This document shows positions 4,673-64,000 of a DNA stretch of 64,000 nucleotides, in pieces. The notes under the pieces were generated by a model. That model worked only from the letters and a program-made list of their open reading frames with translations. It was not told the origin of the DNA and did no database searches. The position numbers and the translations under genes are program-made. The first letter of the stretch is position 1. Each line of letters starts with the position of its first letter. Source of the stretch: Patescibacteria group bacterium (GTDB lineage: Bacteria; Bacteroidota; Ignavibacteria; Kapaibacteriales; Kapaibacteriaceae); NCBI GenBank assembly GCA_044376225.1, contig JBILLF010000002.1, positions 24,192-88,191 on the forward strand. The letters run 5' to 3'.

Positions 4673-4778
4673 GTGGATCCTTGAACGAAGTTCGAACTTG
4701 ACGACAACACCCACCATTATGATGGGTTATGTTTGTGTCGCTTGGAATTTACCACTTTTTCGGGAGCAGGCAGGGGGC

Positions 4779-50700: not shown

Positions 50701-50897
50701 AGCTTCGATTTTCGCATCCGAGCGCCACATCAACCTCGACGCTGGGTGGAGACCCCAATGCTGAGTCGTCACAGTCGGCAAGCACCATCAGGAACGCAGG
50801 ACGTAAGGTTGGACGCAACGAACCGTGTCCGTGCGGATCAGGCATGAAGTTCAAAGCCTGTCACGGGGCTAGCGGAGCAACCACCTACCCGGCCTGA
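47772..50897 (+). CDS. secA: preprotein translocase ATPase SecA
   Basis: MLKFLQSLIGGSKHEKDVKEI N-terminus, Walker A (GTGEGKTLVSTLP), DEVDSVLIDEARTPLIISG, and a C-terminal zinc finger (CPCGSGMKFKACHG). Confidence 0.95.
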   Translation: MLKFLQSLIGGSKHEKDVKEIRPIVDQINGHFAGLSSLSDQDLRARTDEFRDRVREAVADLKAEAEEIRERLRTDMTMDHAERSDLYARLNSNEREQFEATQQALNDILPEAFAVVKEACRRLVGHRYMVVGNEQTWDMVPYDVQLIGGIVLHQGKIAEMGTGEGKTLVSTLPLYLNALAGRGVHLVTVNDYLARRDREWMRPIFDFLGVSTGCIQSDMRPDDRKVQYGSDITWGTNNEFGFDYLRDNMVTDPQDMVQRGHWFAIVDEVDSVLIDEARTPLIISGPVTAGSTETAFVEMKPRVQRLVDAQARFVNSIVAEAEKLLATGYKEDRINAGVNLLRANRGMPKQSKLLKMLQEPDAMKLLRDTELDYLRDQGQRMNIIDQELYFTVDEKNHQIDISDKGRELLTSSQEDPEMFVIPDIAAQMSALEGDASISAEDKTLRRDDMMRVFSDRSDRIHIVNQLLRAYTLYVRDDEYVVQDGKIKIVDEFTGRILEGRRYSDGLHQAIEAKEGVFVEQDTQTFATVTLQNYFRLYHKLAGMTGTAETEAAEFWQIYTLDVVAIPTNRPVQRKDLDDFIYRTKREKYNAVVEAVQLELAAGRAVLVGTTSVEVSELLSKMLKRANVPHNVLNAKQHQREAEIVANAGKKGAVMIATNMAGRGTDIKLDGDVKEKGGLAIIGTERHEARRIDRQLRGRAGRQGDPGSSQFFISLEDDLMRLFGGERIAAAMQRMKVPEGEPIQSGIVTKAVENAQKKVEGNNFGIRKRLLEYDNVMNQQREVIYDRRRHALMGERLRSEILEYASELCGQWYDEHHPSGDHDAFMNTIRAKMLCEPSVSAQSFTSDSKEQVMERVMEAVVEFYDRKESMLGHDFMSQLERVAALRAVDDEWREHLRVMDDLKEGIYLRAYGQKDPILEYKQEAYRVFLELLTQINEATVSFAFKYFPQFAERAERQAPTRPAATVVPSVTTSTPTRQLRFSHPSATSTSTLGGDPNAESSQSASTIRNAGRKVGRNEPCPCGSGMKFKACHGASGATTYPA

Positions 50898-50904
50898 TGC
50901 AACG

Positions 50905-52065
50905 TTAGTTGACGCTGTCCCCTTCGCGAAGATTCTCGGAGGGGTGCTGCACAATGTGGTCTCCGACATCGAGTCCAGACGCGACAACCGTCATTAGCGC
51001 GCTCCGTGCACCGAGTGTCACAGAGCGCCGGCGAATGATGCCGGCTTCAACCACCAGCACGTGCCACTGATCAGCATCTCGAAGAAGCGCACCGAGTGGG
51101 ATACAAAGCGCATGTTCTGATCTCTCCGTAATGATGGCCGCTTCGACGCGATATCCGTCACCGAGCCCAGGTGGACGGGCCGCGATATCGGCGATAACAT
51201 TGACGCGCTGTTCCTCGATTCCGAGCGAGCTTACCCGTGTGCGGGCCGACGGTTCAACGCGTCGTACCGTTGCCCGGACGATGGAGTTCCCTCCCCATCC
51301 ATCGAGGTTGACGCTCATGCCTGGACGGATCTTGACGGCATCGATACTGAGTACATCGATCACCACTTCAGCCTGAGACGTGTCGCCTAGTTCTACGATC
51401 GGTGTACCGGCCAGGACGGTGCGTTCGGACTGTTCGTGACACCTTAGCACAACGCCTGATGTTGGTGCACGCACAGAAACACGCTGACCGGGTCGGCCGG
51501 CTAGAATGGCCAGGACGGCTTTGGATTCAAAGCCTATGGCCCGCTCACGCTCGCGCAGGGCATCGGCCTCACGTTGCAGCTGCTCATAGGCATCGCGGGC
51601 ATTCTCGGCCTGCTCGCGCGTAACGGCTCCGGCCAGCTCAAGCCGACTCAGTCGCTCGGTTCTGCGTCTAGCCTGTTCTATCAGGGGGCTCATTGCAGCC
51701 AGGCGCTGATGGATCTCAGCCGATCCGGCACTGATGGAGCCGAAACGAGCCCGGGCTTCGGAACGCTGACGCTCGTCAAGCTCGGGTGGAATGATGGTGC
51801 CGATGATCTGCCCGGCAATGACGCTATCACCGGGTTCGACGCTGAGTCGTTCGAGGACGCCGGTAGCCGGCATGGCCACAACGAACCGTTCGCGAGCGCG
51901 CACAATACCGTCGGCCTCGACCGTGGTCTCAAGATCCTGCTGTCGAACCACTACCTGCTCAACACGAATTGGTCGTGGCAGCAACGCTACGATGATCGCG
52001 GCAATGACGACAACGATCGTGATGATCCAGCCAAGATATCGGGGACGTCGTAGCTTCATCATCAC
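50905..52065 (-). CDS. HlyD/MacA-family periplasmic adaptor (membrane fusion protein)
   Basis: N-terminal TM anchor, long coiled-coil (ENARDAYEQLQREADALRERE) and a beta-barrel/lipoyl-like C-terminal region. It starts at the stop of the ABC permease. Confidence 0.7.
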   Translation of the reverse strand: MMMKLRRPRYLGWIITIVVVIAAIIVALLPRPIRVEQVVVRQQDLETTVEADGIVRARERFVVAMPATGVLERLSVEPGDSVIAGQIIGTIIPPELDERQRSEARARFGSISAGSAEIHQRLAAMSPLIEQARRRTERLSRLELAGAVTREQAENARDAYEQLQREADALRERERAIGFESKAVLAILAGRPGQRVSVRAPTSGVVLRCHEQSERTVLAGTPIVELGDTSQAEVVIDVLSIDAVKIRPGMSVNLDGWGGNSIVRATVRRVEPSARTRVSSLGIEEQRVNVIADIAARPPGLGDGYRVEAAIITERSEHALCIPLGALLRDADQWHVLVVEAGIIRRRSVTLGARSALMTVVASGLDVGDHIVQHPSENLREGDSVN

Positions 52066-54425
52066 TCACGGGATTTGAGAACGGCGATCATGTCAAGTCG
52101 GGCTATCCGACGACGGATAAACCCGCCGGTTACGAGCGCAACGGCGAGGATCAGTGCGGCACTGATGCCGAGGTTGCGCAGACTGATGGCAAAGGGAAAT
52201 CGAAACAGATCTGTAGCAATCAGCGAAGGCATCCACATCGACCACATGATGCCCCCTAGCATGCCGATCGGCAAAGCAACGAGCGTGATCACGAATTGTT
52301 CGCCCAATAGGATCACAGTAACGTCACGATTCGAGAAGCCAAGCACGCGCAGGCTTGCAAGTTCATTGCCCCGCTCGCTAAGTGCAATGCGTGCGTTGTT
52401 AAACACCACGCCGAAGGCGATGAGCGAGGCAAAGAACACAATGTAGAAATTTGAAATGTCCATGAATTGCAGATAGCTCTCATCGAAGCTACGCATGGCC
52501 CGCTCGCGCATCACCACACCTGACATTGACGGGAGCCTCTTGACGGCGCGGTAAAACTCCCCCATCAGTGCCGGATCGATCTGCAGGTATGCTCCACTGA
52601 TGCTCCCTTGCTCGCGCAGCATTGCACGCAGCACACCTGGTGAGACATAGACCTGCACGCCCATCATGTCGTCGATCAGTGACGTGACAGCCACCGTGAA
52701 TGATCGACGTTCTTCGTCGATCTGACGCAGCCCGATTGTGTCACCAATGCCAAACCCCATCATTTTGGCCATGTACGCCGAACAGGCCACACCGTAGGTT
52801 GGGACCGGCTGAGGCCACCCCTTCATCGACGTCACGCGATGGAGCTCCGGGTACTCAACACCGGCCACTATGGCGGTGCGCTTGGTGGTGGAGCCGACGA
52901 TCACATCCACAGGGATCGCACGAAAGGGTTCGACAGACATTACTCCAGGTAAAGCCGCCAGATCATGCACTGCCCGGTGCGAGCGCGGCGTCATGAATGT
53001 TACCATGGCATCCTCACGAGCAACGCGATGGAACTGTACCGTCAGAATTGTCTCAAACATTTCCATGAAGTAGCGTCCAAGAACAAGCAACGACATTGCC
53101 AGGGCGATCGCCAGTAGGCTCACCACCGCACGCACCGGCCGACGCAGCACGTTGCGAACGATCATCGACGTTAGGGGGCTGAAACGGCGTGTAAGACCGC
53201 TGCGTTCGAGCAGCCCGCCGCGATACGACCGCGGTGCTTCGGGTCGCATGGCCTCTGCCGGTGGCAACCGCACGATGGCTCGAACCGCCGCTATCGCGCC
53301 AAGTGAAGCCGCCAGAAGACTCAGCAGAATAGCGCCAAGGATCACGAGAACAGGTACGTCAAACTCCAGCACCGGTAGCCGGTAGAAGTCTAGGTACATC
53401 CTGACAAGCCTGACACCGATGAAAATGCCACCGGCCAGGCCCAGCACGGTGCCACCGGCTACGGCCACCACGGCAAAGCCCACGTAGTGTAGCGAGATAC
53501 GTCCATTGCCGTACCCAAATGCCTTGAGAATGGCGATCGTCGAACGCTGCGTAGTAACGAAACGTAGCAGCGAGATATTCAGCAGAAAGATCGCCACACC
53601 GAGAAAGATCGCCGGAACGATAAGGGCCGTGAGCGACAGCTGTCGGATCTCATCACTGAGGAACTTGTGCGACTGCTGATCGTCTCGCGCAATGGCACCG
53701 GTACTTCCATACGGACGAAGCAGCACATCAAGCCGGTCAATGATTCCTGTCTTTGACGCGCCCGGTACCAGGTCGAATGAAGCGCTGTTCCAGGCACCCG
53801 ACAAGTCATAGAGCGTACCAAGAGCCCCCTGCTCCATCCACATCACCGCAAATCGCTTGTTGTCGATCATCATCGAGCCCGGAACAAGCTCCAACACCCA
53901 TTCCGGAGAGAGTGCCGTGGCAACGATGCGAAGGGGCTTCCAGCGCCCATTGATCACGGCATTGACCGTGTCACCCTCATGAAATCCATTGGCCAGTGCA
54001 AAGGCGTAAGAGACGATCACTTCGTCATCAGTGTGGGGCGTGAGCCAGCGACCGGAGCGCAGGCTCAGCCGATTGACAGGGGGCTGACCTGATCCAGGGA
54101 TTCCGGTGATGATGCCCGTTGCCGGCTCTGCCAGACCAGGGATATCGATCACCACATTGGCCACAACACGAAGGTCGACGTTCGTTACGCCGCTGATCTG
54201 AGCCAGACGCGAGCGCAGCTCAAGTGGCGCCCGGCGCACCTGCGCCCAGACGTCACCAAAGTTCGTTTCGTCGTAGTAGGTGCGCTGCGACAGCACCAGC
54301 GAAGCATGCGTGCTTTGGAAGGCAACGTAATTGGCAATACCGGCGGCGATCACCAGAATGATGGCGATCATCTGGCCGCGCATGTGACGGACCTCGCGCA
54401 GGAGCTTGATGGTCAAAATCGACAC
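52062..54425 (-). CDS. ABC transporter permease with duplicated FtsX domains (YbbP/MacB-like, about 790-820 aa)
   Basis: Two FtsX-type 4-TM modules separated by large periplasmic domains. Start uncertain (GTG about 54425 or ATG 54383). It is 3' of the ATPase gene. Confidence 0.7.
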   Translation of the reverse strand: MSILTIKLLREVRHMRGQMIAIILVIAAGIANYVAFQSTHASLVLSQRTYYDETNFGDVWAQVRRAPLELRSRLAQISGVTNVDLRVVANVVIDIPGLAEPATGIITGIPGSGQPPVNRLSLRSGRWLTPHTDDEVIVSYAFALANGFHEGDTVNAVINGRWKPLRIVATALSPEWVLELVPGSMMIDNKRFAVMWMEQGALGTLYDLSGAWNSASFDLVPGASKTGIIDRLDVLLRPYGSTGAIARDDQQSHKFLSDEIRQLSLTALIVPAIFLGVAIFLLNISLLRFVTTQRSTIAILKAFGYGNGRISLHYVGFAVVAVAGGTVLGLAGGIFIGVRLVRMYLDFYRLPVLEFDVPVLVILGAILLSLLAASLGAIAAVRAIVRLPPAEAMRPEAPRSYRGGLLERSGLTRRFSPLTSMIVRNVLRRPVRAVVSLLAIALAMSLLVLGRYFMEMFETILTVQFHRVAREDAMVTFMTPRSHRAVHDLAALPGVMSVEPFRAIPVDVIVGSTTKRTAIVAGVEYPELHRVTSMKGWPQPVPTYGVACSAYMAKMMGFGIGDTIGLRQIDEERRSFTVAVTSLIDDMMGVQVYVSPGVLRAMLREQGSISGAYLQIDPALMGEFYRAVKRLPSMSGVVMRERAMRSFDESYLQFMDISNFYIVFFASLIAFGVVFNNARIALSERGNELASLRVLGFSNRDVTVILLGEQFVITLVALPIGMLGGIMWSMWMPSLIATDLFRFPFAISLRNLGISAALILAVALVTGGFIRRRIARLDMIAVLKSRE

Positions 54426-54429
54426 AGCA

Positions 54430-55155
54430 TCACCATGAGAGTTCACGGGGCTGCTTGCGCTGCGTCGGGGAATACTCCTGCACGATCGTACCACTGCGCA
54501 TACGCAGCACCCGGTCGGCCATGTCCGCAATACTAGCGTTGTGTGTGATCAGCGCTACCGTCGCGTCGAGTTCACGATGTACCAGGTCGATCACCTCCAG
54601 CACGATGATGCCTGTCTCGAAGTCCAATGCGCCCGTGGGCTCGTCACAGAGAAGAACGTCTGGACGTTTGGCAATGGCACGGGCGATGGCAACCCGCTGC
54701 TGCTCGCCCCCTGACATCTGAGACGGGAAGTGATGCATGCGGTCGGCCAAGCCCACGAGGTCAAGTGCCGTTCGTGCATCCATCGGCTCTTCAACGAGAT
54801 CGGTCACCAGCTGCACGTTCTCAAGTGCCGTCAGACTTGGGATGATGTTGTAGAACTGGAACACGAAGCCCACCGAGTGACGTCGGAACCTGGTCAGCGC
54901 TGCCTCATCAGCATGAGTCAGATCCGTCTCCCGATACCGAACGCTGCCGGATGTGGGCACATCGAGCCCACCGAGGATGTTCAGCAAGGTGGACTTACCA
55001 CTTCCCGAAGCACCGAGGATCACCAGGAGCTCGGACTCATGGATTGTCAGCGACACATCGCTAAGGGCTACAACCTCTAGCTCGCCCATCGAATAGGATT
55101 TCGTGACGTGGCTGACGTCAAAAAGGACAGGGCGGCCGGAGTGATCCTGATGCAT
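54430..55155 (-). CDS. ABC transporter ATP-binding protein (MacB/LolD/YbbA-like)
   Basis: Walker [10 protein letters not shown], signature [14 protein letters not shown] and Walker [12 protein letters not shown]. Confidence 0.9.
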
Positions 55156-55182
55156 ACTATTCCGTCCATGCCACCCAGGGGC

Positions 55183-55962
55183 CTACATCGAGTGAATCTG
55201 CACGTCACCATGATGGTCGATGGCCACATAGGTCGATGGCTTATCGGTCCAGCATCCGGAGTTGACGTACGTGACATCATCGATTTGCTTGATCCCGGGC
55301 ATGTGCGTGTGACCGCAATGAACCACCTGAGCCTGATGCCTGCGGCGTCCATGTCCAGCTGCATCGTGTGCAATCTTGTCGCTCAGGCGCAGCCACTTCT
55401 TGCTGGTGCGCTTTACCCAGCGGCTCACGCGGTGGTGCGGATCGATGCGCTGCAGCAGCAGATACAGCCATGAGGCGATGGCCGTGATGGTCACATGTTT
55501 GGTGATCCATCGGTCAAACTGGTGTCCATGAATGGCCAGATGACGCTTGCCCGCAACCGTAAAGACGATCTCTTCATGCACCGGTACTCCCAGAAGGTGC
55601 GTCAGGATCTCGGCCACACCACCGTCATGATTGCCCACCACCCAGACCACGTCTACGCCCCGACGTGGATTTGACAGACGTCGCAACAGCGACAGAACCT
55701 TCCAGTCATCCTTGGTAAGACGCCTGAAGTTGAGATCGTCAAAGACATCGCCGTTGAGGATCAGGCGTTTGTAGATGTGCGTCTTGAGCATCATCACCAG
55801 CGCCTTTGAGCGGGCAACATCCGAACCCAGGTGCAGGTCGGAGATGATGATGGTGTCCACGTCAAGAGGCACGGCAAGATGAAGGTCAATCCGCTCGCGC
55901 TCACTGACCTCGACGTCTACGATGATATCATCATCGATGTCATAGTCGGCGACGGAACGCAT
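55183..55962 (-). CDS. calcineurin-like metallophosphoesterase (LpxH-like UDP-2,3-diacylglucosamine diphosphatase family)
   Basis: IISDLHLG, GDVFD and GNHD are metallophosphoesterase motifs I-III. Start uncertain (55962 or 55998). Confidence 0.6.
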   Translation of the reverse strand: MRSVADYDIDDDIIVDVEVSERERIDLHLAVPLDVDTIIISDLHLGSDVARSKALVMMLKTHIYKRLILNGDVFDDLNFRRLTKDDWKVLSLLRRLSNPRRGVDVVWVVGNHDGGVAEILTHLLGVPVHEEIVFTVAGKRHLAIHGHQFDRWITKHVTITAIASWLYLLLQRIDPHHRVSRWVKRTSKKWLRLSDKIAHDAAGHGRRRHQAQVVHCGHTHMPGIKQIDDVTYVNSGCWTDKPSTYVAIDHHGDVQIHSM

Positions 55963-56704
55963 GGATGTGCTGTCGGAAATATCCCGTGGGGAAGTCATCA
56001 TGGAGTCCGTATCGAGTAGGCTTTTCCGTTTCTGGTAAATAGGCAGTAGCAAACAGCCAGTCCCAGATGGCAAGCTTGGTCGAGAAGTTGCGATTATGCG
56101 AACGGGGATCGTCGGCATGGTGCCAGCGGTGCATCTCCGGACCGTTGATCACGCGTTGCAGACGTCCCGTGCGCACGTCAATATTCGAATGGATGTACAT
56201 GCCCCAAATGGCATCAATGGCCCCCTTTATCACGGCTACCTCCGGTGAGGCCAGCAGCACGATCGGGAGGAACTCTACCGTCTGGTTGATGAGGATCTCA
56301 AGACTGTGCGAGCGTGATCCGCTAAGCCAGTCCACATCGGTGGTTGAATGATGAGCCTCGTGAATTCGCCACAGCAGTGCATTCGAGTGTTGCCAGCGAT
56401 GGAACCAGTAGATGTAAAAGTCGTGCACCAGAAGAAACACCACCATCTGCGCCGCCAGTGGCTGCGAGCGCAGAAACACAAGGCGGCTCAGGCCGCTCTG
56501 CTGGTCAATCCAGCCGATGAGGGCAAAGATCACCAGACCCAGCACGTAGCTCTGGGCGATGGCGTACAGGCCCAGATCGGTCATGAACCCACTCCTGAAA
56601 AGGGGCTGACCCGACGTGTAGGGAAACAGCCGTTCAAGGACGACCAGCAGGCCCCCTGCTAGGATCACCATCGTGGTGCAGACTATTGCCAGCGACAGCT
56701 CCAT
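55940..56704 (-). CDS. fatty acid hydroxylase superfamily integral-membrane di-iron enzyme (sterol-desaturase-like)
   Basis: Multiple TM segments plus three histidine boxes (HRWQH, HEAHH, HRWHH). Confidence 0.7.
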   Translation of the reverse strand: MELSLAIVCTTMVILAGGLLVVLERLFPYTSGQPLFRSGFMTDLGLYAIAQSYVLGLVIFALIGWIDQQSGLSRLVFLRSQPLAAQMVVFLLVHDFYIYWFHRWQHSNALLWRIHEAHHSTTDVDWLSGSRSHSLEILINQTVEFLPIVLLASPEVAVIKGAIDAIWGMYIHSNIDVRTGRLQRVINGPEMHRWHHADDPRSHNRNFSTKLAIWDWLFATAYLPETEKPTRYGLHDDFPTGYFRQHIHAFRRRL

Positions 56705-56707
56705 ACC

Positions 56708-57607
56708 TTAGGCTTCTCCTCGGACCGATGACGAAACACGACGAAGCTTCGACCGCACGCCCAGCTCACTGTCATACAGGCGCTTGACACCGTCGCCCAG
56801 TGAGCGCTCGATCTCGCGGATATCGCGAATCATGCGCTCGAGTCCGGCAATCTCTACGCTGGCGGCTTGGTCAGTTCCCCACATAGCCCGGTCGAGAGTG
56901 ATATGTCGCTCAACGAACCGCGCACCGAGGGCAACGGCGGCATACGTCGTAGCAAGCCCCACCTCGTGCCCGCTATAGCCGATGATGCGGTTCGGGTAGC
57001 GAGCCTGTAGGGTATTGATCATCCGGAGGTTGAGTTCATCCGAGGCACAGGGATAGGCCGAAGTTGCGTGGGCGATCAGCAGGTTCGCATCGGTCAGTGA
57101 TTCGACAGCCTGATCGATTTCCTCCGTCGTGGACATGCCGGTGGAGATCATCAGCGGCTTGCCTGTTGATGCCATGACACGAAGTAGTCCAAGGTCAGTT
57201 AGTGATGCCGATGCTGCCTTGTAAAAAGGCACATCAAAGTTTGCCTCCATAAAGGCCAGCGCCTCCTCATCCCAGCATGACACAGTCCAGTCGATACCAA
57301 GATCCCGGCACAGTGCGTCAATAAGGCGATAGTCCTCTTCGTCGAATTCCACCTTGTAGCGATAGTCGATGTAGGTCATGCGTCCCCACGGCGTGTCACG
57401 CTCGATCATCCATTGATCACGCGGCACACACAGCTCCGGGGTACGCTTCTGAAACTTCACACAAGACGCGCCGACGCGTGCCGCGCCGCGAATCATCTCA
57501 CGGGCGATATCAAGAGATCCGTTATGGTTGATGCCAATCTCGGCGATGACATAGACTGGCTGATCTGCGCCAATGGCTGGCTTGGTCGTCGATGGTTGAA
57601 TGCTCAT
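56708..57607 (-). CDS. NeuB-family PEP-condensing synthase (sialic/ulosonic acid synthase-like), short form lacking a C-terminal SAF domain
   Basis: VYVIAEIGINHNGSLDIAREMIRGAARVGASCVKFQ is the NeuB TIM-barrel N-terminal signature. At 299 aa it lacks the C-terminal antifreeze-like domain. Confidence 0.65.
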   Translation of the reverse strand: MSIQPSTTKPAIGADQPVYVIAEIGINHNGSLDIAREMIRGAARVGASCVKFQKRTPELCVPRDQWMIERDTPWGRMTYIDYRYKVEFDEEDYRLIDALCRDLGIDWTVSCWDEEALAFMEANFDVPFYKAASASLTDLGLLRVMASTGKPLMISTGMSTTEEIDQAVESLTDANLLIAHATSAYPCASDELNLRMINTLQARYPNRIIGYSGHEVGLATTYAAVALGARFVERHITLDRAMWGTDQAASVEIAGLERMIRDIREIERSLGDGVKRLYDSELGVRSKLRRVSSSVRGEA

Positions 57608-57684
57608 GCGAAGCTCCCTGAAAGATGATTGGTTCCCATCATGAATGCTGTAGAGTCGTCAGGTCAATTGCCGGTTGGCGCAGG

Positions 57685-58494
57685 TCACCAGGCCGTCCAG
57701 CCGCCGTCGACAAGAAGATTGTGTCCGGTCATGTAGGCCGAGGCATCGCTGGCAAGAAACACGAGCGCACCGCGATAGTCCGTTGGGTCAGCCATGCGTC
57801 CAAGCGGCGTGCGCTCGGAATAGAGTTTCTGGAAATGCTCGTTCTGATTGTTGGCCACACCGCCCGGTGAGAGCGTATTGGCACGTACACCTGACCCAGC
57901 CCAGTATGTAGCCAGAAACTTGGTCAGCATCACTACCGCCCCCTTCGAGGCTGGATAGGCAGCACTCTTGTAGAACGACTGTGAGCCATCGGGACGCTGG
58001 TAGAGCCGCTGATCTGGGGCCACAACGCCGTAGGTCGAGGCGATGTTGATGATCGAGCCTCTTCTGGTCTCGGCCATATGCGTGCCGATGATCTGGCTTG
58101 TCAGGAACACTCCGGTGACGTTGACATCAAGCACCTTGCGAAACAGCGTCAGCGGATAGCTCTCAAAGGCCGACGGTGCGCCCCCGGAAAGGGGTGCTTC
58201 GACCATGTCATTCATGGCGGCATTATTGACCAGAATATCAATGTGTCCATGTTCGCGCAGGACCATCTCGCGTAGATCGACAATTCCCTCGGCATCGGTA
58301 ACATCGAGTGCAACACCCATGTGGTGAGCACCCAGTTCCTGCGCCACGTCGCGAGCCGCATGACCATCGAGGTCACAGGCCACAACCGTTGCACCGGCAG
58401 CGGCGAGAGCCACGCAGTGCTGACGTCCCAATAGACCCGCTGCACCAGTGACCACCGCTACGCGGTCTTCAAGCGAAAAGATGTTTTGCATCAC
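57685..58494 (-). CDS. short-chain dehydrogenase/reductase (SDR)
   Basis: VVTGAAGLLG (TGxxxGxG), NNAA, and catalytic YxxxK (YPASK). Confidence 0.8.
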   Translation of the reverse strand: MMQNIFSLEDRVAVVTGAAGLLGRQHCVALAAAGATVVACDLDGHAARDVAQELGAHHMGVALDVTDAEGIVDLREMVLREHGHIDILVNNAAMNDMVEAPLSGGAPSAFESYPLTLFRKVLDVNVTGVFLTSQIIGTHMAETRRGSIINIASTYGVVAPDQRLYQRPDGSQSFYKSAAYPASKGAVVMLTKFLATYWAGSGVRANTLSPGGVANNQNEHFQKLYSERTPLGRMADPTDYRGALVFLASDASAYMTGHNLLVDGGWTAW

Positions 58495-59822
58495 TTGTGC
58501 TCCATCGCAACACGCGGCTTAGTGTTGAAGGCACCCGTCTTGCGGAATACCGGCTCAACGCATCGGCCGCGCAGTGCCAATGGCAGTGTTCCCATGCGGA
58601 TGTGTTCATGTAGCATCGGCAATACGTCGGCATAGACATCAAGCGTGAACTCGATGTCTGCAAGCGTGTGTGCCGCACTCAGCGTGTGAAAGCCATTCCA
58701 TAGAATTCCGTACCGGAGCAGTTCCTGCTGCACAAACGAACGCATCATCAGCGGGTCCGCAGACGCGTCCGAAAAGGCCATCATTGTGCGGGCCCCAAGC
58801 CCCTTGACCGTGGCGTAACTCATGTCGTTGGAGGCAAGGATCAAGCGAATACCCTCGCGGAGTTCATCACCCAATAGCTCCATTCGCTGCAGAACCTCAC
58901 CATCGAGCAGGCGGTGTAACGTGGCCTTGGCAGCGGCAAGTGATAGTGCTTCGCCACCGAAGGTCGTAAAGAAGAATACATCCTTCTCGAGCAGACGCAT
59001 GATCTCGGCCTTGCCCGTCAGCACTGATAGCGGCATGCCATTGGCAACGGCCTTTGAGAAGCAGGCAAGGTCAGCCTGAACGCCAAATCGCATCTGCGCA
59101 CCGCCCGGAGAGATCCGAAAGCCAGTCCACATTTCGTCGAAGATCAAGACGATACCACGCTGATTGCAGAGTTCGCGCAGCTCCTGAAGGAAGTCCTCCT
59201 TCGGTTCGTCAAAGACCATCGGCTCAAGGATGATTGCCGCTGTATCAGAATCGAGCGCATCATAGACGCTCTGCATGTCGTTATAGCTGAAGGTGTAGGT
59301 CAGGTCTCGCACAGCCTGTGGGATTCCCATGGCGCGGTCCGTGGTGGCGATGTACCAGTCGTGCCAGCCATGATACCCGCAGCACAGCACCGTAGAACGT
59401 CCTGTATAGGCACGAGCCAATCGCACCGCAGCCGATGTGACATCGCATCCTGTCTTGGAAAAGCGCACATGCTCGGCATTGGGAACAATACCATGGATAA
59501 GCTCGGCAACTTCTACTTCCAGTGGGTGCATCAGCGAAAACGTTATGCCGTCATGAAGCTGCTGCTCGATGGCCCGATTGACGCCGGCATCGGCATAGCC
59601 AAGAATGAGCGGACCGATCGCCATGGCGTAATCGAGGTAACGGTTATCGTCAACATCCCAGAGGTAAGCCCCCTTTCCGCGTTGGGCAAAGACAGGCGCT
59701 ACGCCGCGCACGTGCTGACCAGGTCCTTTGGCGAGGGTCTGCGTCTGTGCCGGGATGAGTCGCTCGGCTCGCTTAAGAAGCTCTTGGGATCGCTGGATCG
59801 GTGGATATGTTGGCTCACGCAT
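58491..59822 (-). CDS. class III PLP aminotransferase (glutamate-1-semialdehyde aminomutase-like)
   Basis: GSA-AT-like fold with the PLP lysine in the FSKAVANGMP context. The length (about 440 aa) fits. It overlaps the flanking genes by 4-8 nt. Confidence 0.7.
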   Translation of the reverse strand: MREPTYPPIQRSQELLKRAERLIPAQTQTLAKGPGQHVRGVAPVFAQRGKGAYLWDVDDNRYLDYAMAIGPLILGYADAGVNRAIEQQLHDGITFSLMHPLEVEVAELIHGIVPNAEHVRFSKTGCDVTSAAVRLARAYTGRSTVLCCGYHGWHDWYIATTDRAMGIPQAVRDLTYTFSYNDMQSVYDALDSDTAAIILEPMVFDEPKEDFLQELRELCNQRGIVLIFDEMWTGFRISPGGAQMRFGVQADLACFSKAVANGMPLSVLTGKAEIMRLLEKDVFFFTTFGGEALSLAAAKATLHRLLDGEVLQRMELLGDELREGIRLILASNDMSYATVKGLGARTMMAFSDASADPLMMRSFVQQELLRYGILWNGFHTLSAAHTLADIEFTLDVYADVLPMLHEHIRMGTLPLALRGRCVEPVFRKTGAFNTKPRVAMEHK

Positions 59823-60783
59823 GGGTAACCTCGCTTTGTGGTGAAAGGGGCTGGCTGACGCCATGAACGATATCGGCAAAGCGCTCGCGGATGCGATGAG
59901 CCAGTGCCGGGGCGCTCATGCGCTCATTCTCAAGCACGTCGTTAAGACGTCCAGGCCGGAACCACGTCGGAAAGCCAATAGTCAGCACCGGCGCAGCAAT
60001 ACGATTCGCCATGAGCGTCTCGGCAACGATGCTGGCAAGGCCCCCTGTGAGAAAATGATCTTCGACGGTAACAACGAGCTCGCTTGTTCGGGCGGCGTCG
60101 AGGATTGCTTCAACGTCAACGGGCTTGAGCGTGCGCATATTCACTACGCGCACATGCATGTCTTCCCTACGGAGCTCGTCGGCCGCTTCGATACACAGCC
60201 TTGTCATGAAGCCATACGTAAGGATCGTTACGTTCGGGCGGTGCAGCGAAGCACCACGAACAGCCACTGCCCTACCGGGCTCGAATGGCACTCTGTCGAT
60301 CGGCAGCTCCGGAGCATTGAGATAGCGGACGTACCAGGGACGACGGGATTCGAGCAGCACGCGCATACCATCGACAAACTCCTGTTCGTCGCAGGGACAG
60401 AACACACCTACGTTCGGCAGGCCTCGCATGATCGATACGTCCTCAATAGCCTGGTGAGTGGGACCATTACCGTCACTGAGAATGCCTGCAACCATGCCCA
60501 CCATGATCACCGGGGCGTTGGCAATAGCTACATCATCGCGGATGAATTCAAAGGCTCTCATCGTGATGAAGGCCGCCAGCGCATGCGTCACCACGACCCG
60601 ACCGCGCACGGCCATTCCGGCTGCCATGCCGATCATTGTTTGCTCAGCAATACCGACGTCTATAAATCGGTCGCCCAGCATCGGCGGTACAGTTCGCATA
60701 TGTCCACGGTTTTCGGCCGTGATCACCACGAGGCGCTCATCGCGCGATGCTGTATCTAGGAGCAGAGTTTCGTAAGCGTTCAT
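59815..60783 (-). CDS. transketolase, C-terminal (pyrimidine-binding) subunit of a split transketolase
   Basis: GIAEQTMIGMAAGMA...GPTHQ are motifs of the transketolase Pyr and C-terminal domains. It is a separate ORF immediately after the N-terminal subunit. Confidence 0.75.
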   Translation of the reverse strand: MNAYETLLLDTASRDERLVVITAENRGHMRTVPPMLGDRFIDVGIAEQTMIGMAAGMAVRGRVVVTHALAAFITMRAFEFIRDDVAIANAPVIMVGMVAGILSDGNGPTHQAIEDVSIMRGLPNVGVFCPCDEQEFVDGMRVLLESRRPWYVRYLNAPELPIDRVPFEPGRAVAVRGASLHRPNVTILTYGFMTRLCIEAADELRREDMHVRVVNMRTLKPVDVEAILDAARTSELVVTVEDHFLTGGLASIVAETLMANRIAAPVLTIGFPTWFRPGRLNDVLENERMSAPALAHRIRERFADIVHGVSQPLSPQSEVTHA

Positions 60784-61637
60784 CGTACGATCAAGGTTTC
60801 TGAGGTGAGTGTTGCACGCGCATGGCCATTGAGCTCTTCGATGAGAGCCTGTGTCTCTTCGGCACTGAAGTTGCAGAACCAGCGGTCGGCTCTCTCTTCG
60901 ATACTTGGCAGCCCCTTACCGCGACGTGTATCGGCAATGACCACGGTGGGACTTCCCGAGTTCAGTTGCAACGAGCTGAAGCACGCGTCAAGCGAATTCA
61001 TATCATGGCCATTGGCGTAAACAGCATTCCAGCCGAAGGCCCGAAACTTCTCGGGAAGGGGCTCAAGCGGCACCAGCTCTTCGGTGCGCACATTTGCCTG
61101 GAAGTGATTACGATCTATCACGGCGATGAGATTGTCCAGACTCAGCGCCGAGGCTACCAGACAGGCCTCCCAGACGCTTCCCTCGTTGAGTTCACCATCG
61201 CCCATAATGACCACAACGCGTGTCGATAGGCCCTTCATCCGAGCATCAAGGGCCATTCCCATACCGACGCTGAGAAGATGACCCAGCGAGCCGGAGTGAA
61301 ACTCCACCCCCGAAACATTGCGGTTTGGATGCCAATAGAGATCGTCGTTCACCGAAAGGTGGTGCTTAAGCCGTTCTTTGCTGATGAAGCCTCGCTCGGC
61401 CAGCACACCATAGAGAGCCGGCACGTCGTGCCCCTTGGAGAGTAGCAGAATGTCGCGGTCTTCGGCGTGCACTGTCAGCGGCGAGATGTTCAGGAAGCGC
61501 CAGTACAGGTATACGAGCAGATCCGCGCACGACAGAGACGCTCCAATGAAGCAGCCGCCGTCGGTGGACATCCGCACGATGTGCTCGCGCACACGAAGGG
61601 CGGCGCTTTGGAGTTCTTCGACCTCGGCAGACGTCAT
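60780..61637 (-). CDS. transketolase, N-terminal (thiamine-diphosphate-binding) subunit
   Basis: SKGHDVPALYGVL...GSLGHLLSVGMGMAL...VIMGDGELNEGSVWEA is the ThDP-binding motif. Confidence 0.75.
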   Translation of the reverse strand: MTSAEVEELQSAALRVREHIVRMSTDGGCFIGASLSCADLLVYLYWRFLNISPLTVHAEDRDILLLSKGHDVPALYGVLAERGFISKERLKHHLSVNDDLYWHPNRNVSGVEFHSGSLGHLLSVGMGMALDARMKGLSTRVVVIMGDGELNEGSVWEACLVASALSLDNLIAVIDRNHFQANVRTEELVPLEPLPEKFRAFGWNAVYANGHDMNSLDACFSSLQLNSGSPTVVIADTRRGKGLPSIEERADRWFCNFSAEETQALIEELNGHARATLTSETLIVR

Positions 61638-62425
61638 GAAGCGATCCTCGGTGGTGATTGCAAATAGCTTTGATACCAGCTCTGTCCACGCAACTGCTGA
61701 TTGATGAGGTCGATCTCGGGATGCGCGTCAAGAAACGCCAGAACGTCCTCGCACCGAAAGCGAGGGTTCGCCCAGTAAAGCGCGTCATAAACGGCCCGGA
61801 TCAGAACGTAATCTTCGGGATGATCGATGGTCCAGCGGTGGCGTGCCTCGAGCAACTGACCATCTGGACGCTCCACATTCCGCATGGTGATGTATGGGTT
61901 ATTCTCCCACATCCATGGAGTCGTATGCTCGCGTTCATGCGGTCTACTGGCCGTTGCCCAGGCCCGGTGAAGAGCAAGCATCGTCATCACTTCGACGTCA
62001 TTCCCATCAGGCCATGTGCCGGGGTGCAGATTACTGGCGTAGTCCACCCACGGATACTCCAGCAGGAAGGACTCAATGACCATGTCGATCACGGCCGGGT
62101 CGATGAGTGGACAGTCAGTCGGGATCTTGACAACCACATCGGCATCAACCATCTGAGCTGCCCAGAAATGCCGGTCAAGCAGATCCGTAGGATGCCCGCG
62201 ATAAACACGGTATCCGGCAATGTGGCATAGGTCGGCGATCTCATCGTCTTGAGCAAGCGTGGTGGTGGCCACGATCACATGCTTGGCGTAGCGAGCCATT
62301 GTGACGCGCTCAAGAAAACGAAGAAGAAGGGGCTCTCCGGCAAGTGGCAGCAGGACTTTGCCGGAGAGACGGGTTGACCCCGTGCGAGCCTGGCAGATAA
62401 TGGCCACCTTGGGTTGATGATTCAC
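61634..62425 (-). CDS. CMP-sugar-type cytidylyltransferase (CTP_transf_3; acylneuraminate/Kdo cytidylyltransferase or SpsF/PseF-like)
   Basis: KVAIICQARTGSTRLSGKVLLPLAGEPLL is the N-terminal nucleotide-binding signature of the SpsF/NeuA/KdsB family. Confidence 0.65.
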   Translation of the reverse strand: MNHQPKVAIICQARTGSTRLSGKVLLPLAGEPLLLRFLERVTMARYAKHVIVATTTLAQDDEIADLCHIAGYRVYRGHPTDLLDRHFWAAQMVDADVVVKIPTDCPLIDPAVIDMVIESFLLEYPWVDYASNLHPGTWPDGNDVEVMTMLALHRAWATASRPHEREHTTPWMWENNPYITMRNVERPDGQLLEARHRWTIDHPEDYVLIRAVYDALYWANPRFRCEDVLAFLDAHPEIDLINQQLRGQSWYQSYLQSPPRIAS

Positions 62426-63432
62426 ACGGCCTCCCGCAGATGATAGGAACGGCGCTCTGGAAGCATCAGACCGCGCTCATGGAGAACTTCTGTGCAGACC
62501 TCGGCGATACTCGCTGCCGAACGTCCGCCATTCTGAATCGGACACATACGGCGCAGCTCCTCCATCGGGAAGTCGCTATAGACTTCCTTGCCTAGGGCAA
62601 TGCCCACGTACACACATGAAGAGAACTTGGTAATGAGTGTCTGGCAATGTGCGATCATCGGATTGATGTCGCGGCCGTGATATACCAGCGCATTAGGAGC
62701 CCAGCGGTCGATCTCGCGTCGTGCACGGTCAACGACCTCGTTCGGATGAAGCTTGAAGATCAGCTGACGTCCATCGGCAATGCGCAGGGCATTGAGTATC
62801 GTTTGACGACGGTCCTCGAGCTTGAATGTCTCGCGCGCGTCGCTGGTGGCAACGAGCACGAAGTCGCTGTGATCGAACGGGACTTCGCGATAGCGCTCAC
62901 AGTTATCGAAGTTTGGGATGCCCGTAACACGCAGTTTGCGACCATCAGCCCCTTTCCGTCGGAAGTGGTCCGCGTAGCCTTCGGATGCCACGCACATGTA
63001 TCGATAGGCATTTGAGAGTCCGAAGGTCGACGTCGAGGCAAGGTATCGTGGCAGACCCAGCTTCATCACCGCACGGTACATGAAGTTCTCGGGATCGGTC
63101 ATGCCCTCCTGCACCAGCACGATCGGACGGTTGCGGATGTTCTGCTGCAACATCAGATCGCTGCAGGTCACCACGAGGTCATAATCGAGCTCGCTGCCAA
63201 ACTCATCGATGCGGCACAGATTAGCGCGCAGCACCTGGCGTGCGCGTTCACGGTGGCGGTTGCCCACAATGGTCCACTCTAGCAGACCGGAGCGTGCAGC
63301 CGCCTCCAAAAGTCCGTCGGCATAGTGCGGGGCAAAGCGGCACTCGTGTTCCGACAGATGACGGGCGATCTCGACCATCATCGTGGTTTGATTTACCGAG
63401 CCGCAGATAAAGAGAATGTTACACCGTTGCAT
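62422..63432 (-). CDS. Capsule_synth (KpsS/KpsC/LpsZ)-like protein, a putative CMP-ulosonic-acid glycosyltransferase; first gene of the operon
   Basis: About 336 aa with a Rossmann-like N-terminus (ILFICGS). The segment LIFKLHPNEV resembles the conserved HP motif of KpsS/KpsC beta-Kdo transferases. Assignment by motif recollection only. Confidence 0.35.
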   Translation of the reverse strand: MQRCNILFICGSVNQTTMMVEIARHLSEHECRFAPHYADGLLEAAARSGLLEWTIVGNRHRERARQVLRANLCRIDEFGSELDYDLVVTCSDLMLQQNIRNRPIVLVQEGMTDPENFMYRAVMKLGLPRYLASTSTFGLSNAYRYMCVASEGYADHFRRKGADGRKLRVTGIPNFDNCERYREVPFDHSDFVLVATSDARETFKLEDRRQTILNALRIADGRQLIFKLHPNEVVDRARREIDRWAPNALVYHGRDINPMIAHCQTLITKFSSCVYVGIALGKEVYSDFPMEELRRMCPIQNGGRSAASIAEVCTEVLHERGLMLPERRSYHLREAV

Positions 63433-63454
63433 TACGATGCAAACATCATTAGCG

Positions 63455-63474
63455 GGCGTTACGCAGGCGTTACG
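63455..63474. promoter_or_regulatory. tandem direct repeat GGCGTTACG x2 (11-bp spacing) in the upstream region of the 63432->50905 operon
   Basis: The two exact 9-mers, at 63455-63463 and 63466-63474, are 20-50 nt upstream of the first operon ATG on the minus strand. Confidence 0.3.
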
Positions 63475-63522
63475 GCAAAATCAATCCTGCGCAACATAGG
63501 CGCACTTGTCGTAAAGATGTCG

Positions 63523-64000
63523 TTATGGGGCTGACCATTCGCGGCGCGTAAGCACCGACGAATCGGTAAGAGCCTTCATAAAGGCTACGATATCAGCCAT
63601 TTCGGCATCGCTCAGACCAAGCTTCCTTACCCGCTTGTCCTTGTTGTTGAAGGGCGTGCCGCCATCGTTGTAGTGCGCCACCACTTGCTCAAGGGTGGTA
63701 AGGGGCCCCTTATCACTATCACCCGATGCCATGTATGGAGGCGTGAGCGCAACATTGCGCAGCGATGGCGTCTTAAAGAGCCCTTCATCACGCGGATCCT
63801 TCGTCACATTATACCGACCGCGGTCGAAGTAGTGATTGAACAGCCCCACGTTCTGGAAAAGGTCGTTGGTAAGATCCTGTCCGCCGTGGCAGGCCCCGCA
63901 CATGGTCTTGGCACTAAAGAAAAGGTTCATGCCGCGACGTTCCTGATCACTGAGTGCTTGATGTTCACCGAGCAGATATCGATCATACCGACTGTTAGCA
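63523..64000 (-). CDS. di-haem cytochrome c peroxidase (CCP/MauG family), C-terminal part; the gene continues beyond the window end
   Basis: C-terminal haem domain MCGACHGG (CxxCH), followed by FKTPSLRNVALTPPYM, the conserved CCP motif. The reading frame is open to the window edge. Confidence 0.7.
   Translation of the reverse strand, partial: ANSRYDRYLLGEHQALSDQERRGMNLFFSAKTMCGACHGGQDLTNDLFQNVGLFNHYFDRGRYNVTKDPRDEGLFKTPSLRNVALTPPYMASGDSDKGPLTTLEQVVAHYNDGGTPFNNKDKRVRKLGLSDAEMADIVAFMKALTDSSVLTRREWSAP

Follow-up and report, generated by a model that had tools for sequence, protein, structure and literature searches.

Within the stretch of 64,000 nucleotides analysed here (the window), we found a run of twelve genes built around a conserved cassette of predicted sugar-acid enzymes headed by a GT-B-fold protein of an unmodelled family. 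We see about an even chance that this cassette serves to produce a CMP-activated amino sugar acid and to link it to a membrane lipid. The conserved unit, recovered in more than 80 related loci, consists of the GT-B protein, a CMP-synthetase, a class-III aminotransferase, a short-chain dehydrogenase/reductase (SDR) and a NeuB-type synthase; a split transketolase and a KdsC-type phosphatase usually belong to the cassette, and an OlsE-like hydroxylase often does. We found no paper describing it in the open-access full-text literature, in agreement with the preliminary description of this DNA, which had taken the gene set to be unlike any described pathway.

Layout and conservation of the gene run

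The twelve close-packed open reading frames, all on the minus strand and spanning 50905..63432, are present where they had been placed, as confirmed by checking the ORF coordinates of the window. In transcription order, the features are as follows.

Intergenic region upstream of g1, 63433..63522 (-): 90 nt, the sole room for a promoter of the run
g1, 62422..63432 (-): soluble protein with a GT-B fold, from an unmodelled family; predicted CMP-sugar-using transferase
g2, 61634..62425 (-): CTP_transf_3 cytidylyltransferase, predicted CMP-ulosonate synthetase (PF02348, 70.8 bits, cut-off 22.6)
g3, 60780..61637 (-): transketolase N-terminal (ThDP-binding) subunit (Transketolase_N, 98 bits)
g4, 59815..60783 (-): transketolase pyrimidine-binding and C-terminal subunit (Transket_pyr, 103 bits; Transketolase_C, 86 bits)
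g5, 58491..59822 (-): class-III (GSA-aminomutase-like) PLP aminotransferase (Aminotran_3, 171 bits)
g6, 57685..58494 (-): SDR (adh_short_C2, 154.9 bits)
g7, 56708..57607 (-): short NeuB-type PEP-aldose condensing synthase (NeuB, PF03102, 237.6 bits)
g8, 55940..56704 (-): membrane di-iron hydroxylase, OlsE-like (FA_hydroxylase, PF04116, 104.9 bits)
g9, 55183..55998 (-): metallophosphoesterase with the LpxH fold and a helical insertion domain, without being a true LpxH
g10, 54430..55155 (-): ABC ATPase of the MacB/LolD/DevA type (ABC_tran, 123.6 bits)
g11, 52062..54425 (-): permease with two FtsX domains (FtsX in two stretches, 92.8 bits)
g12, 50905..52065 (-): periplasmic adaptor, or membrane fusion protein (HlyD_D23 and HlyD_3)

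The junctions were computed from the start codons best backed by homologue lengths: ATG 59822 for g5 (open frame extending to 59879), 55998 or 55962 as the likely start of g9 (open frame extending to 56118), and GTG 54425 for g11, which gives 787 aa, the length of its homologues in loci L088 and L089 as well. Seven junctions overlap, by 4 nt at g1/g2, g2/g3, g3/g4, g5/g6 and g11/g12, by 8 nt at g4/g5 and by 23-59 nt at g8/g9, while four have gaps, of 77 nt at g6/g7, 3 nt at g7/g8, 27 nt at g9/g10 and 4 nt at g10/g11. The gaps of 77 nt (between the SDR and NeuB-like genes), 3 nt and 27 nt had been reported correctly. Other figures needed revision: the tally of 8 + 3 + 1 = 12 junctions exceeds the 11 that twelve genes allow, the supposed 6-nt gap measures 4 nt (or 13) at g10/g11, and the overlap at g8/g9 is larger than the upper end of the 4-20 nt range. 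A consensus scan for promoter-like and terminator-like sites gave no excess over shuffled sequence, and the sequence composition carried no island signature.

At the Pfam level, ten of the twelve original family calls hold; the exceptions are g1, which is not a Capsule_synth protein, and g9, which is LpxH-like in fold only. Scores above the Pfam gathering threshold were obtained for CTP_transf_3, Transketolase_N, Transket_pyr with Transketolase_C, Aminotran_3, adh_short, NeuB, FA_hydroxylase, Metallophos, ABC_tran, FtsX (twice) and the HlyD-type adaptor.

Of 79 loci belonging to Kapabacteria, Ignavibacteria, Chlorobiota and Nitrospirota, 61-79 keep g1, g2, g5, g6 and g7 in the same order, and this core gene order also appears in methanotrophic Gammaproteobacteria, with the window proteins being 45-69% identical to their Methylomagnum counterparts. 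One related locus, L089, has all twelve genes in the same order between the same flanks (its g9 product is 55% identical). Because the twelve-gene order recurs there, and the core in the wider set of loci, the arrangement is more than chance. Conservation as a cassette takes in g1-g7 together with g8 and, at times, g9; the functional unit is smaller than the twelve genes first proposed.

The predicted sugar-making enzymes

The g2 product matches the KdsB models at 1e-16 yet below cut-off, and its scores with PseF and other equivalogs are below cut-off too; it has a full-length match to PDB 6oew (E 2.4e-38), and its gene follows g1 in 77/79 loci. Together, g3 and g4 carry all three transketolase Pfam domains, and against NF004559, whose cut-off of 488 bits is set for the whole enzyme, the two subunits score 223 (g3) and 172 bits, each below it. 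The g3 gene is missing from 13 related loci. The g5 aminotransferase scores 363.7 bits against PRK06209, below the cut-off of 486, and has GSAM and sugar C-6' aminotransferases among its PDB relatives, while g6 scores best with NCBIfam models of sugar-acid dehydrogenases (gluconate 5-DH, KduD), none of which reaches its cut-off.

The g7 synthase is 299 aa long and gave no match to an SAF/AFP domain. It stays below the equivalog thresholds for N-acetylneuraminate synthase (228.5 vs 399.65 bits) and pseudaminate synthase (184.1 vs 340.25 bits). When aligned to NmNeuB (1xuu), it conserves EIGINH, VKFQK, YKAAS, STGM, SGH and ERH, and it keeps the catalytic Glu, the Lys and the two metal-binding His of NeuB. 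With a NeuB-type synthase (g7), a CTP_transf_3 enzyme (g2) and an aminotransferase paired with an SDR (g5, g6), the run supports the earlier proposal of a module that makes and activates an amino-ulosonic acid; most likely, g2-g7 build a CMP-activated amino-3-deoxy-ulosonic acid.

The GT-B protein

A Pfam search with g1 returned no match. The Capsule_synth assignment (KpsS/KpsC, PF05159) made in the preliminary description was rejected, as PF05159 is not among the families at E<=1 for any of 49 family members. Against the KpsC structure 6mgb the match is local and non-significant (E 0.46), with KLHPNE and FSS..G..LGKEV of g1 aligning with VHPE and VSS..G..LGKEV of KpsC; LITKFSS of g1 pairs with LITDYSS in a TagF-like polymerase at E 1e-3, and this match, like that to KpsC, is local and weak. 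The protein has a GT-B fold with K-x-H-P and S-S motifs in the C-terminal domain, which align to Cps3D as well as to KpsC; such motifs mark the cytidine-nucleotide-dependent GT-B transferases (sialyl-, Kdo- and TagF-type), in which they bind the phosphate of CMP/CDP. Within the family, K227, H229, P230 and S271 are invariant and S270 is the consensus residue.

The best structural neighbours of g1 are UDP-GlcNAc 2-epimerases and NeuC rather than transferases. Its family comprises more than 5,000 proteins, and the best 240 matches are all unnamed or called "hypothetical protein". From its fold and motif alignments, we predict that g1 is a cytidine-nucleotide-dependent transferase that uses a CMP-activated sugar.

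Links to lipid genes

The sole NCBIfam match of g8 is OlsE, at 120.9 bits against a cut-off of 475, and its sequence contains the His boxes HRWQH, HEAHH and HRWHH. An OlsE-like hydroxylase gene follows the NeuB gene in 41 loci. Fusions of LPG_synthase_TM, a flippase-like membrane domain of the MprF type, to g1 occur as three representatives of 50%-identity clusters from four independent samples, one of them heading the same cassette, and in six loci a stand-alone LPG_synthase_TM gene lies immediately before g1. Downstream of the cassette, an OlsF equivalog (673.9 bits vs a cut-off of 620) is found in nine Ignavibacteriales loci, an adjacency limited to this one order plus one gammaproteobacterial case; SMR genes follow in 11 loci, and in Methylomagnum ishizawai the cassette is followed by an MFS transporter gene together with OlsB-like and OlsA-like genes. 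The GT39/ArnT-like partner located upstream in Methylomagnum was not found in other loci. We gave little weight to a fusion of g1 with an FA_desaturase domain (P0367), since it lies on one 3.3-kb contig and its domain match is sub-threshold. A lipid is the probable acceptor in view of the fusions to flippase domains, the neighbouring OlsF and OlsB/OlsA genes, the hydroxylase resembling OlsE and the enzyme with the LpxH fold.

The proposed phosphatase step and g9

In 36-39 of 65 related loci, a gene of about 175 aa lies between the SDR and NeuB genes. Its HAD product passes the cut-off of the KdsC (YrbI) subfamily model TIGR01670 (143-146 bits vs 106.95), and it scores best with the KDN-9-P phosphatase model NF058599, at 154-156 bits, below the cut-off of 180. 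Within the 64-kb window, no KdsC-type HAD, OlsF or flippase-domain gene was found; without that HAD, phosphate removal would have to fall to g9 or to a housekeeping KdsC. A KdsD-type SIS+CBS gene is present in the window.

The g9 product has the metallophosphoesterase core and helical insertion domain of LpxH, and so the original "LpxH-like" label is right for the fold; the defining Arg is absent. This Arg (Arg80 of PaLpxH) replaces the His of GNH(D/E) and is common to all LpxH according to an LpxH study, and LpxH2, also with an insertion domain, is argued there to use another substrate (PMC5016852). Where LpxH has GNRD, g9 has GNHD, and G110, N111, H112 and D113 are invariant in 40 sequences. 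With His at the defining Arg position and no match to an NCBIfam LpxH model, g9 was rejected as a true LpxH.

Genes of the g9 type and the KdsC-type HAD are never found together (0/35 vs 13/24, Fisher p = 6e-7, a value that ignores kinship). Possibly, g9 simply replaces the KdsC-type phosphatase: the mutual exclusion speaks for it, while the g9-type genes that stand alone far from the cassette and a second metallophosphoesterase type, which co-occurs with the KdsC-type HAD, speak against it.

The ABC block

The products of g10-g12, the only transporter here, have the tripartite make-up of MacB-type systems (ABC ATPase, FtsX permease and periplasmic adaptor). The g10 ATPase scores 200.7 bits with LolD, 197.1 with DevA and 192.5 with MacB, all below cut-off; the specific MacB, LolCDE and DevBCA models are below cut-off for the whole block, and the MacB_PCD domain was not detected. 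Only the generic adaptor model TIGR01730 (RND_mfp) was passed, by g12 at 105.2 bits vs 94.9, and no function-specific threshold was reached.

We are evenly divided on whether the run is in fact two units, the cassette g1-g9 and an unrelated MacB-type efflux pump g10-g12 that happens to adjoin it, a reading compatible with a lipid head group as the cassette's product. Among related loci, the ABC/FtsX/adaptor block is restricted to Kapabacteria-type loci, in which the unrelated housekeeping flanks ThyX, cytochrome c peroxidase and SecA are conserved as well; in L088, g9 and the ABC genes lie apart, with four unrelated genes between them (for a beta-propeller protein, an ECF sigma factor, an unknown product and a DUF4397 protein). 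On the other hand, the gaps at g9/g10 and g10/g11 are short with no excess of terminator-like sites, and a translocator adjoins the cassette in other lineages too (SMR, MFS or a fused MprF-type domain), a pattern into which an exporter here would fit. The attached ABC exporter is a lineage-specific neighbour of the cassette. Of the scheme originally proposed (make, activate, transfer, modify and export), making and activation stand, whereas the export block is found only in Kapabacteria-type loci.

Proposed pathway

Our observations concern the families, folds and motifs of the proteins and the order, fusions and co-occurrence of their genes; from them we infer the chemical steps, the sugar, the acceptor and the role of the transporter. 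The NeuB-type synthase g7 would condense PEP with an aldose phosphate, a precursor that the split transketolase g3/g4 would help to supply; the transketolase appears dispensable in some lineages. The terminal phosphate would then be removed, by the KdsC-type HAD in most relatives and here by g9 or a housekeeping KdsC. Following the logic of Kdo8N synthesis, the SDR g6 would oxidise a hydroxyl and the class-III aminotransferase g5 would convert the carbonyl to an amine, after which g2 would make the CMP-sugar. At the cytoplasmic face, g1 would move the sugar onto a membrane lipid; the OlsE-like g8 would modify this lipid and may create the acceptor hydroxyl, and g9, with its helical insertion of the lipid-binding type, would process a phosphorylated or nucleotide-linked intermediate. 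Finally, the product would be translocated by a candidate that differs by lineage, here perhaps the MacB-type g10-g12, which is the weak link of the scheme.

The acceptor we consider most likely is an aminolipid of the hydroxylated ornithine-lipid type; lipid A/LPS comes second. A bolder reading, possible but rather doubtful, is that the product is an undescribed class of bacterial membrane lipid. In this reading, a new family of GT-B lipid glycosyltransferases would put a CMP-derived amino-ulosonic acid on a lipid, most plausibly the aminolipid just named, and the product would be flipped by a lineage-recruited translocator (a fused MprF-type domain, SMR, MFS or a MacB-type ABC system), through a pathway spanning at least the Bacteroidota-related Kapabacteria, Ignavibacteria and Chlorobiota, the Nitrospirota and the Methylococcales. 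A neuraminic-acid-containing aminoglycolipid was reportedly found in Chlorobium in 1991, and the cassette might account for it.

It is unlikely that the cassette instead makes a Kdo8N-like sugar for the LPS inner core or lipid A, with g1 acting like WaaA, g9 as the LpxH of the lineage and g8 as a hydroxylase of lipid A acyl chains. This would agree with the KdsC-subfamily phosphatase and the KdsB-like cytidylyltransferase, with GT9 heptosyltransferase genes upstream in 11 loci, a PAP2 lipid phosphatase in L086 and the KdsD-type gene of the window; the LpxH fold of g9, and the LpxH name given to g9-type genes in public annotation, would also fit an LPS role. The His of g9 at the position of the Arg of every LpxH and the lack of an LpxH model match stand against it, and no further lipid A or core gene is consistently adjacent. 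Moreover, lipid A is flipped by MsbA, so that the MprF-type fusions, the SMR and MFS genes and the OlsF and OlsB/OlsA neighbours would be left unexplained.

We consider it improbable that the cassette, like ordinary NeuB/CMP-synthetase clusters, provides a sugar of nonulosonic or Kdo-like type that ends up in a capsule, O-antigen, S-layer or flagellin glycan. The NeuB and CTP_transf_3 memberships, a weak match of g1 to TIGR04396 ("surface carbohydrate biosynthesis protein") and GT2 and GT4 genes near some loci are in line with such a glycan. Yet there is a single transferase, 50-60% identical across phyla, which points to a conserved acceptor and not to a glycan that varies between strains; Wzx/Wzy, Wzm/Wzt and KpsMTED genes are absent, with no KpsMTED genes in the window and none seen in related loci, and lipid enzymes and flippase-like domains are the partners that recur.

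Least probable of all is that g1 is a divergent NeuC/PseG-like hydrolysing 2-epimerase that frees the NeuB substrate while the CMP-sugar of the cluster is used elsewhere: despite weak Epimerase_2 (PF02350) matches in 49/49 family members (best E-value 2.5e-6; g1 itself 14.1 bits vs a gathering cut-off of 30.6) and a VQEG that we take to resemble the epimerase HVEAG motif, g1 has a TagF-like (K/D)(F/Y)SS instead of the epimerase motif DSGG, the presence of a KdsC-type phosphatase implies that the substrate is a sugar phosphate of central metabolism, for which no nucleotide-sugar hydrolase is needed, the cluster lacks a dehydratase, a DegT-type aminotransferase and an acetyltransferase, and it is hard to see why a soluble hydrolase should be fused to a flippase-like membrane domain.

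Comparison with known systems

If the preferred reading, a CMP-activated amino sugar acid attached to a membrane lipid, is true, hundreds of environmental species, including the cultured Melioribacter, Ignavibacterium, Rosettibacter and Methylomagnum, would be able to make an anionic or zwitterionic glycolipid or aminolipid head group that has gone unrecognised. A function would be assigned to the large GT-B family of g1, the repertoire known for ornithine lipids or lipid A would gain a sugar-acid modification, a Kdo8N-like sugar would be shown to arise by a NeuB-type route, and lipid biomarker work would obtain a gene-to-lipid link for groups abundant in sediments, bioreactors and hot springs.

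The early steps of the aminoshikimate (AHBA/rifamycin) route give an amino-3-deoxy-ulosonate phosphate. The likeness is one of logic only, with the same classes of enzymes (oxidoreductase, aminotransferase, HAD phosphatase, split transketolase and PEP-condensing synthase); all families differ, and that route has no CMP activation or transferase. The KDN pathway of Bacteroides thetaiotaomicron uses a NeuB-type KDN-9-P synthase and a KdsC-type KDN-9-P phosphatase, and this pair of NeuB-family synthase and KdsC-family phosphatase recurs in relatives of our cassette. KDN, however, has no amino group, its pathway does without an aminotransferase, SDR, transketolase or dedicated GT-B protein, and the window has no HAD.

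The beta-Kdo transferases KpsS/KpsC, which build the poly-Kdo lyso-phosphatidylglycerol capsule anchor, are likewise CMP-sugar-dependent and GT-B-like and place an ulosonic acid on a lipid, and a local alignment to KpsC 6mgb covers the HP and SS..G..LGKEV motifs of g1. They are set apart by the E of 0.46 of that match, the failure of any family member to match PF05159 and the lack of KpsMTED. The MprF lysyl-phosphatidylglycerol synthase flips its modified lipid through its PF03706 domain. Relatives of g1 resemble it in that a cytoplasmic domain adding a head group is fused to a PF03706 membrane domain; the added domain is the GT-B of g1 instead of an aminoacyl-tRNA-dependent synthase, and g1 of the window is unfused.

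For the ornithine-lipid pathway, the OlsF domain order and OlsE chemistry are taken from a 2026 review, a text search of which gave only hydroxylation, N-methylation and taurine transfer as modifications and no match to "sugar" or "neuramin" (PMC12971839). An OlsF gene or an OlsB/OlsA-like pair follows the cassette in relatives, and g8 matches OlsE; in contrast, g8 is far below the OlsE cut-off, and the window has no OlsF.

The Kdo8N pathway of Shewanella, reportedly described by Gattis et al. in 2013, comprises KdsA, KdsC, KdnB, KdnA, KdsB and WaaA. It shares with the proposed pathway a PEP-condensing synthase acting on an aldose phosphate, a KdsC-type phosphatase, oxidation followed by transamination, CMP activation and GT-B transfer to a lipid. 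Its KdnB is a Kdo 8-oxidase (PMC5125639). The cassette described here differs in having a NeuB-type synthase in place of KdsA, an SDR in place of an Fe-ADH, a class III (GSA-like) aminotransferase and a transferase of an unmodelled family in place of GT30, and it adds a split transketolase, an OlsE-like hydroxylase and flippase-like partners.

Organization of the run and family assignments

The twelve open reading frames of the preliminary description are present on the minus strand (window 50905-63432), and are numbered here g1 to g12 in transcription order. With start codons picked from homologue lengths, seven junctions overlap, by 4, 4, 4, 8, 4, 23-59 and 4 nt, and the other four leave a spacer: 77 nt from the SDR gene (g6) to the NeuB-type gene (g7), 3 nt from the latter to the hydroxylase gene (g8), 27 nt from the metallophosphoesterase gene (g9) to the ABC ATPase gene (g10), and 4 nt from the ATPase gene to the permease gene (g11). 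The junctions tallied in that description sum to 12, while twelve genes have 11, and two of its distances were slightly off. The run begins 90 nt downstream of a cytochrome c peroxidase gene. At its 3' end, the stop codons of the adaptor gene (g12) and of a convergent SecA gene lie only 7 nt apart (window 50897-50905), so neither strand has space for a terminator between the two genes. A promoter and terminator scan returned sites no more numerous than in shuffled sequence, and base composition is uniform. Other features of the window are as follows.

3332-4717, minus strand: large secreted-type protein
18989-19969, minus strand: SIS domain plus two CBS domains, 326 aa, with KdsD/KpsF arabinose-5-phosphate isomerase architecture
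20050-24813, minus strand: large secreted-type protein
32505-32952, plus strand: bacterial RNase P RNA class A (235.9 bits), the sole Rfam match in the window
43010-45457, minus strand: large secreted-type protein
63523-64000, minus strand: di-haem cytochrome c peroxidase, C-terminal part, continuing past the window end

Among the three secreted-type proteins, one has BNR/sortilin repeats and a Por_Secre_tail sorting domain, one of 1587 aa is matched only by a C-terminal FlgD_ig, and one is an Ig-domain protein; a type IX secretion system is evidently present in this organism.

Pfam matches well above threshold were obtained for CTP_transf_3 (g2), Transketolase_N (g3), Transket_pyr plus Transketolase_C (g4), Aminotran_3 (g5), adh_short (g6), NeuB (g7), FA_hydroxylase (g8), Metallophos (g9), ABC_tran (g10), two FtsX domains (g11) and the HlyD-type adaptor (g12), which also passes TIGR01730. 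None of the biosynthetic proteins of the run reaches an NCBIfam equivalog cut-off, and none can therefore be named as a known orthologue. Against solved structures, the cytidylyltransferase g2 matches 6oew over its full length (E 2e-38), followed by KdsB; the solved relatives of the aminotransferase include sugar C-6' aminotransferases. For the SDR, the best-scoring NCBIfam models are sugar-acid dehydrogenases. The NeuB-type protein is short (299 aa, without an SAF domain), and its alignment to meningococcal NeuB shows no loss of the catalytic Glu, of the Lys residues or of either metal-binding His.

The product of g1 is a GT-B protein that the preliminary description had called KpsS/KpsC-like. 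The sole match in a family profile search was a TagF-like capsule polymerase (E 1e-3), in which LITKFSS of g1 pairs with LITDYSS. The single sequence gives a local, non-significant match to KpsC, aligning KLHPNE with VHPE and FSS..G..LGKEV with VSS..G..LGKEV. K-x-H-P and S-S are the phosphate-binding motifs of GT-B enzymes with CMP- or CDP-linked donors. The earlier label thus denotes a remote likeness and not membership. The g1 family is large and compact, with more than 5,500 clusters at 90% identity and only 174 at 50% identity with E <= 1e-30; among the matches listed, every relative named by its source is a "hypothetical protein".

Conservation of the biosynthetic cassette

A scan limited to one genome for each species placed relatives of g1 in at least 588 species, and the loci compared were the best 80 of that scan plus ten more found by protein look-up. 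The g1 and cytidylyltransferase genes are adjacent in 77 of 79 loci, and the aminotransferase, SDR and NeuB genes then come in unchanged order in 61-65. In 41 loci the hydroxylase gene comes after NeuB. The SDR and NeuB genes are separated in 36-39 loci by a gene of about 175 codons, whose product passes the KdsC subfamily cut-off, with the KDN-9-phosphate phosphatase model scoring highest. The transketolase pair is absent from 13 GTDB loci (L023, L025, L042, L050, L058, L080, L083, L086 and L087 being among the loci without it) and from two gammaproteobacterial loci; L033 and L053 have, in its place, a far more distant transketolase-like gene, 26-34% identical.

The cassette (g1-g7 with g8, sometimes g9) is found in metagenome-assembled genomes of Kapabacteria, Ignavibacteria, Chlorobiota and Nitrospirota, in cultured Melioribacter and Rosettibacter, and in methanotrophic Gammaproteobacteria, including a Methylomagnum ishizawai plasmid. 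The window proteins share 45-69% identity with their Methylomagnum counterparts. On this plasmid (NZ_AP019784; locus L084, 1-13064), the cassette is preceded by a PMT_2/GT39 membrane glycosyltransferase gene, seen at no other locus, several GT2 and GT4 genes, and genes for an FAD oxidoreductase, a polyprenyl synthetase and a radical SAM protein. Five metagenome-assembled records (L007, L011, L019, L022, L024) are titled Chitinophaga pinensis, Hyphomicrobiales, Methylomagnum or Patescibacteria and hold Kapabacteria- or Ignavibacteria-type loci; they are probably mis-binned or mislabelled, and their labels are unfit for defining taxonomic range.

Predicted sugar pathway

The most likely product of the cassette is a CMP-activated amino-ulosonic acid, which g1 would move onto a membrane lipid. 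The NeuB-type synthase would condense PEP with an aldose phosphate and the ulosonate phosphate would then be dephosphorylated, as in the KDN pathway of Bacteroides, because a KdsC-type phosphatase gene adjoins the synthase gene in related loci. The SDR and the class-III aminotransferase would carry out an oxidation followed by a transamination; they fit the logic of Kdo8N synthesis, which proceeds by these two kinds of step. KdnB has been described as the Kdo 8-oxidase (PMC5125639). The CTP_transf_3 enzyme would produce the CMP-sugar, and the transketolase, being optional among the loci, most likely supplies or balances a sugar-phosphate precursor. The rifamycin AHBA pathway has an identical set of enzyme classes, which shows the logic of the cassette to be feasible. 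The KdsD-type protein at 18989-19969 could supply the aldose phosphate to the synthase, or could serve ordinary Kdo synthesis.

No KdsC-type HAD phosphatase, OlsF or flippase-domain gene lies within the 64-kb window, so here g9, or some gene outside the window, would have to carry out the phosphatase step. No locus has both a HAD and a g9-type gene (Fisher p = 6e-7, uncorrected for phylogeny), which is suggestive of g9 taking this step, an argument weakened by the g9-type genes that stand alone.

Evidence for a proposed lipid acceptor

Five lines of evidence, each independent of the others, favour a lipid acceptor. First, three cluster representatives of the g1 family (50% identity), from four independent samples, are fusions: the N-terminal half is a PF03706 domain, known as the flippase-type membrane domain in MprF, and the C-terminal g1 domain keeps all its motifs. 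One such fusion heads the same cassette at L093. Second, at six other loci a separate PF03706-like gene on the same strand ends 50-110 nt upstream of g1. Third, in nine Ignavibacteriales loci, a 584-aa protein encoded after the cassette, often with an SMR gene in between, passes the OlsF equivalog threshold (673.9 versus 620 bits), and in Methylomagnum the cassette is followed by genes for an MFS transporter that carries the annotation LplT, an Acetyltransf_5 protein of OlsB-like type and an OlsA-like acyltransferase. Fourth, the hydroxylase g8 is a member of the di-iron FA_hydroxylase superfamily with OlsE as its sole NCBIfam match; OlsE hydroxylates the ornithine head group at C4 (PMC12971839). 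Finally, the fold of g9 is that of LpxH and extends to the helical insertion domain, which in LpxH holds the acyl chains (PMC5016852).

Among candidate acceptors, a hydroxylated aminolipid of the ornithine-lipid type is our first guess. It would be a new modification, since a text search of a 2026 review yielded only hydroxylation, N-methylation and taurine transfer (PMC12971839). The main rival acceptor is lipid A or the LPS inner core, favoured by the relatives of g9 named "LpxH" in public records, the GT9 genes near some loci and the KdsD-type gene elsewhere in the window.

As to g9 itself, an identity as LpxH is ruled out: GNHD is invariant throughout its family, and all LpxH have Arg at the position of this His; the LpxH2 paralogue has been argued to have another substrate than LpxH (PMC5016852). 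In about 15 Ignavibacteriales loci, g1 adjoins the gene for another metallophosphoesterase, unrelated to g9 and about 307 aa long, with weak LpxG and CpdA matches and no helical insertion noted (L018, L025, L038, L044, L048-L050, L054, L057, L058, L061, L078, L080, L083); this gene usually lies divergently upstream, and it co-occurs with the KdsC-type HAD.

Two further observations concern neighbouring and fused sequences. In a single 3.3-kb contig (L094, 944-2599, protein P0367), a g1 domain continues at its C-terminal side into a membrane domain resembling fatty-acid desaturases, with His boxes present (Pfam 27.5, just below the 29.7 cut-off); this fusion could be real or an assembly artefact. 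Downstream of the cassette, alkaline phosphatase and PstS genes occur together at L001 (17950-20937) and singly at L024 and L025, and may hint at phosphate-starvation control, as known for phosphorus-free lipids.

The ABC transporter block

The chances that the ABC system (g10-g12) is linked to the cassette and plays a part in its function are about even. A link is favoured by the close packing of the genes and by the recurrence of one translocator or another beside the cassette. However, the block lies beside the cassette only in Kapabacteria-type loci, where ThyX, peroxidase and SecA are likewise conserved, and at L088 four unrelated genes separate it from g9. The peroxidase at 63523-64000 and ThyX are the conserved upstream neighbours of the cassette in these loci.

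Comparison with known systems

No description of this gene set was found in open-access full texts, a scope that leaves its absence from the literature unproven. All enzyme families of the cassette are already known; what is new is the gene combination and the dedicated, unmodelled family of GT-B proteins, together with the fusion of this family to a flippase-type domain and its tie to aminolipid genes. In its logic, the cassette runs parallel to Kdo8N and KDN synthesis.
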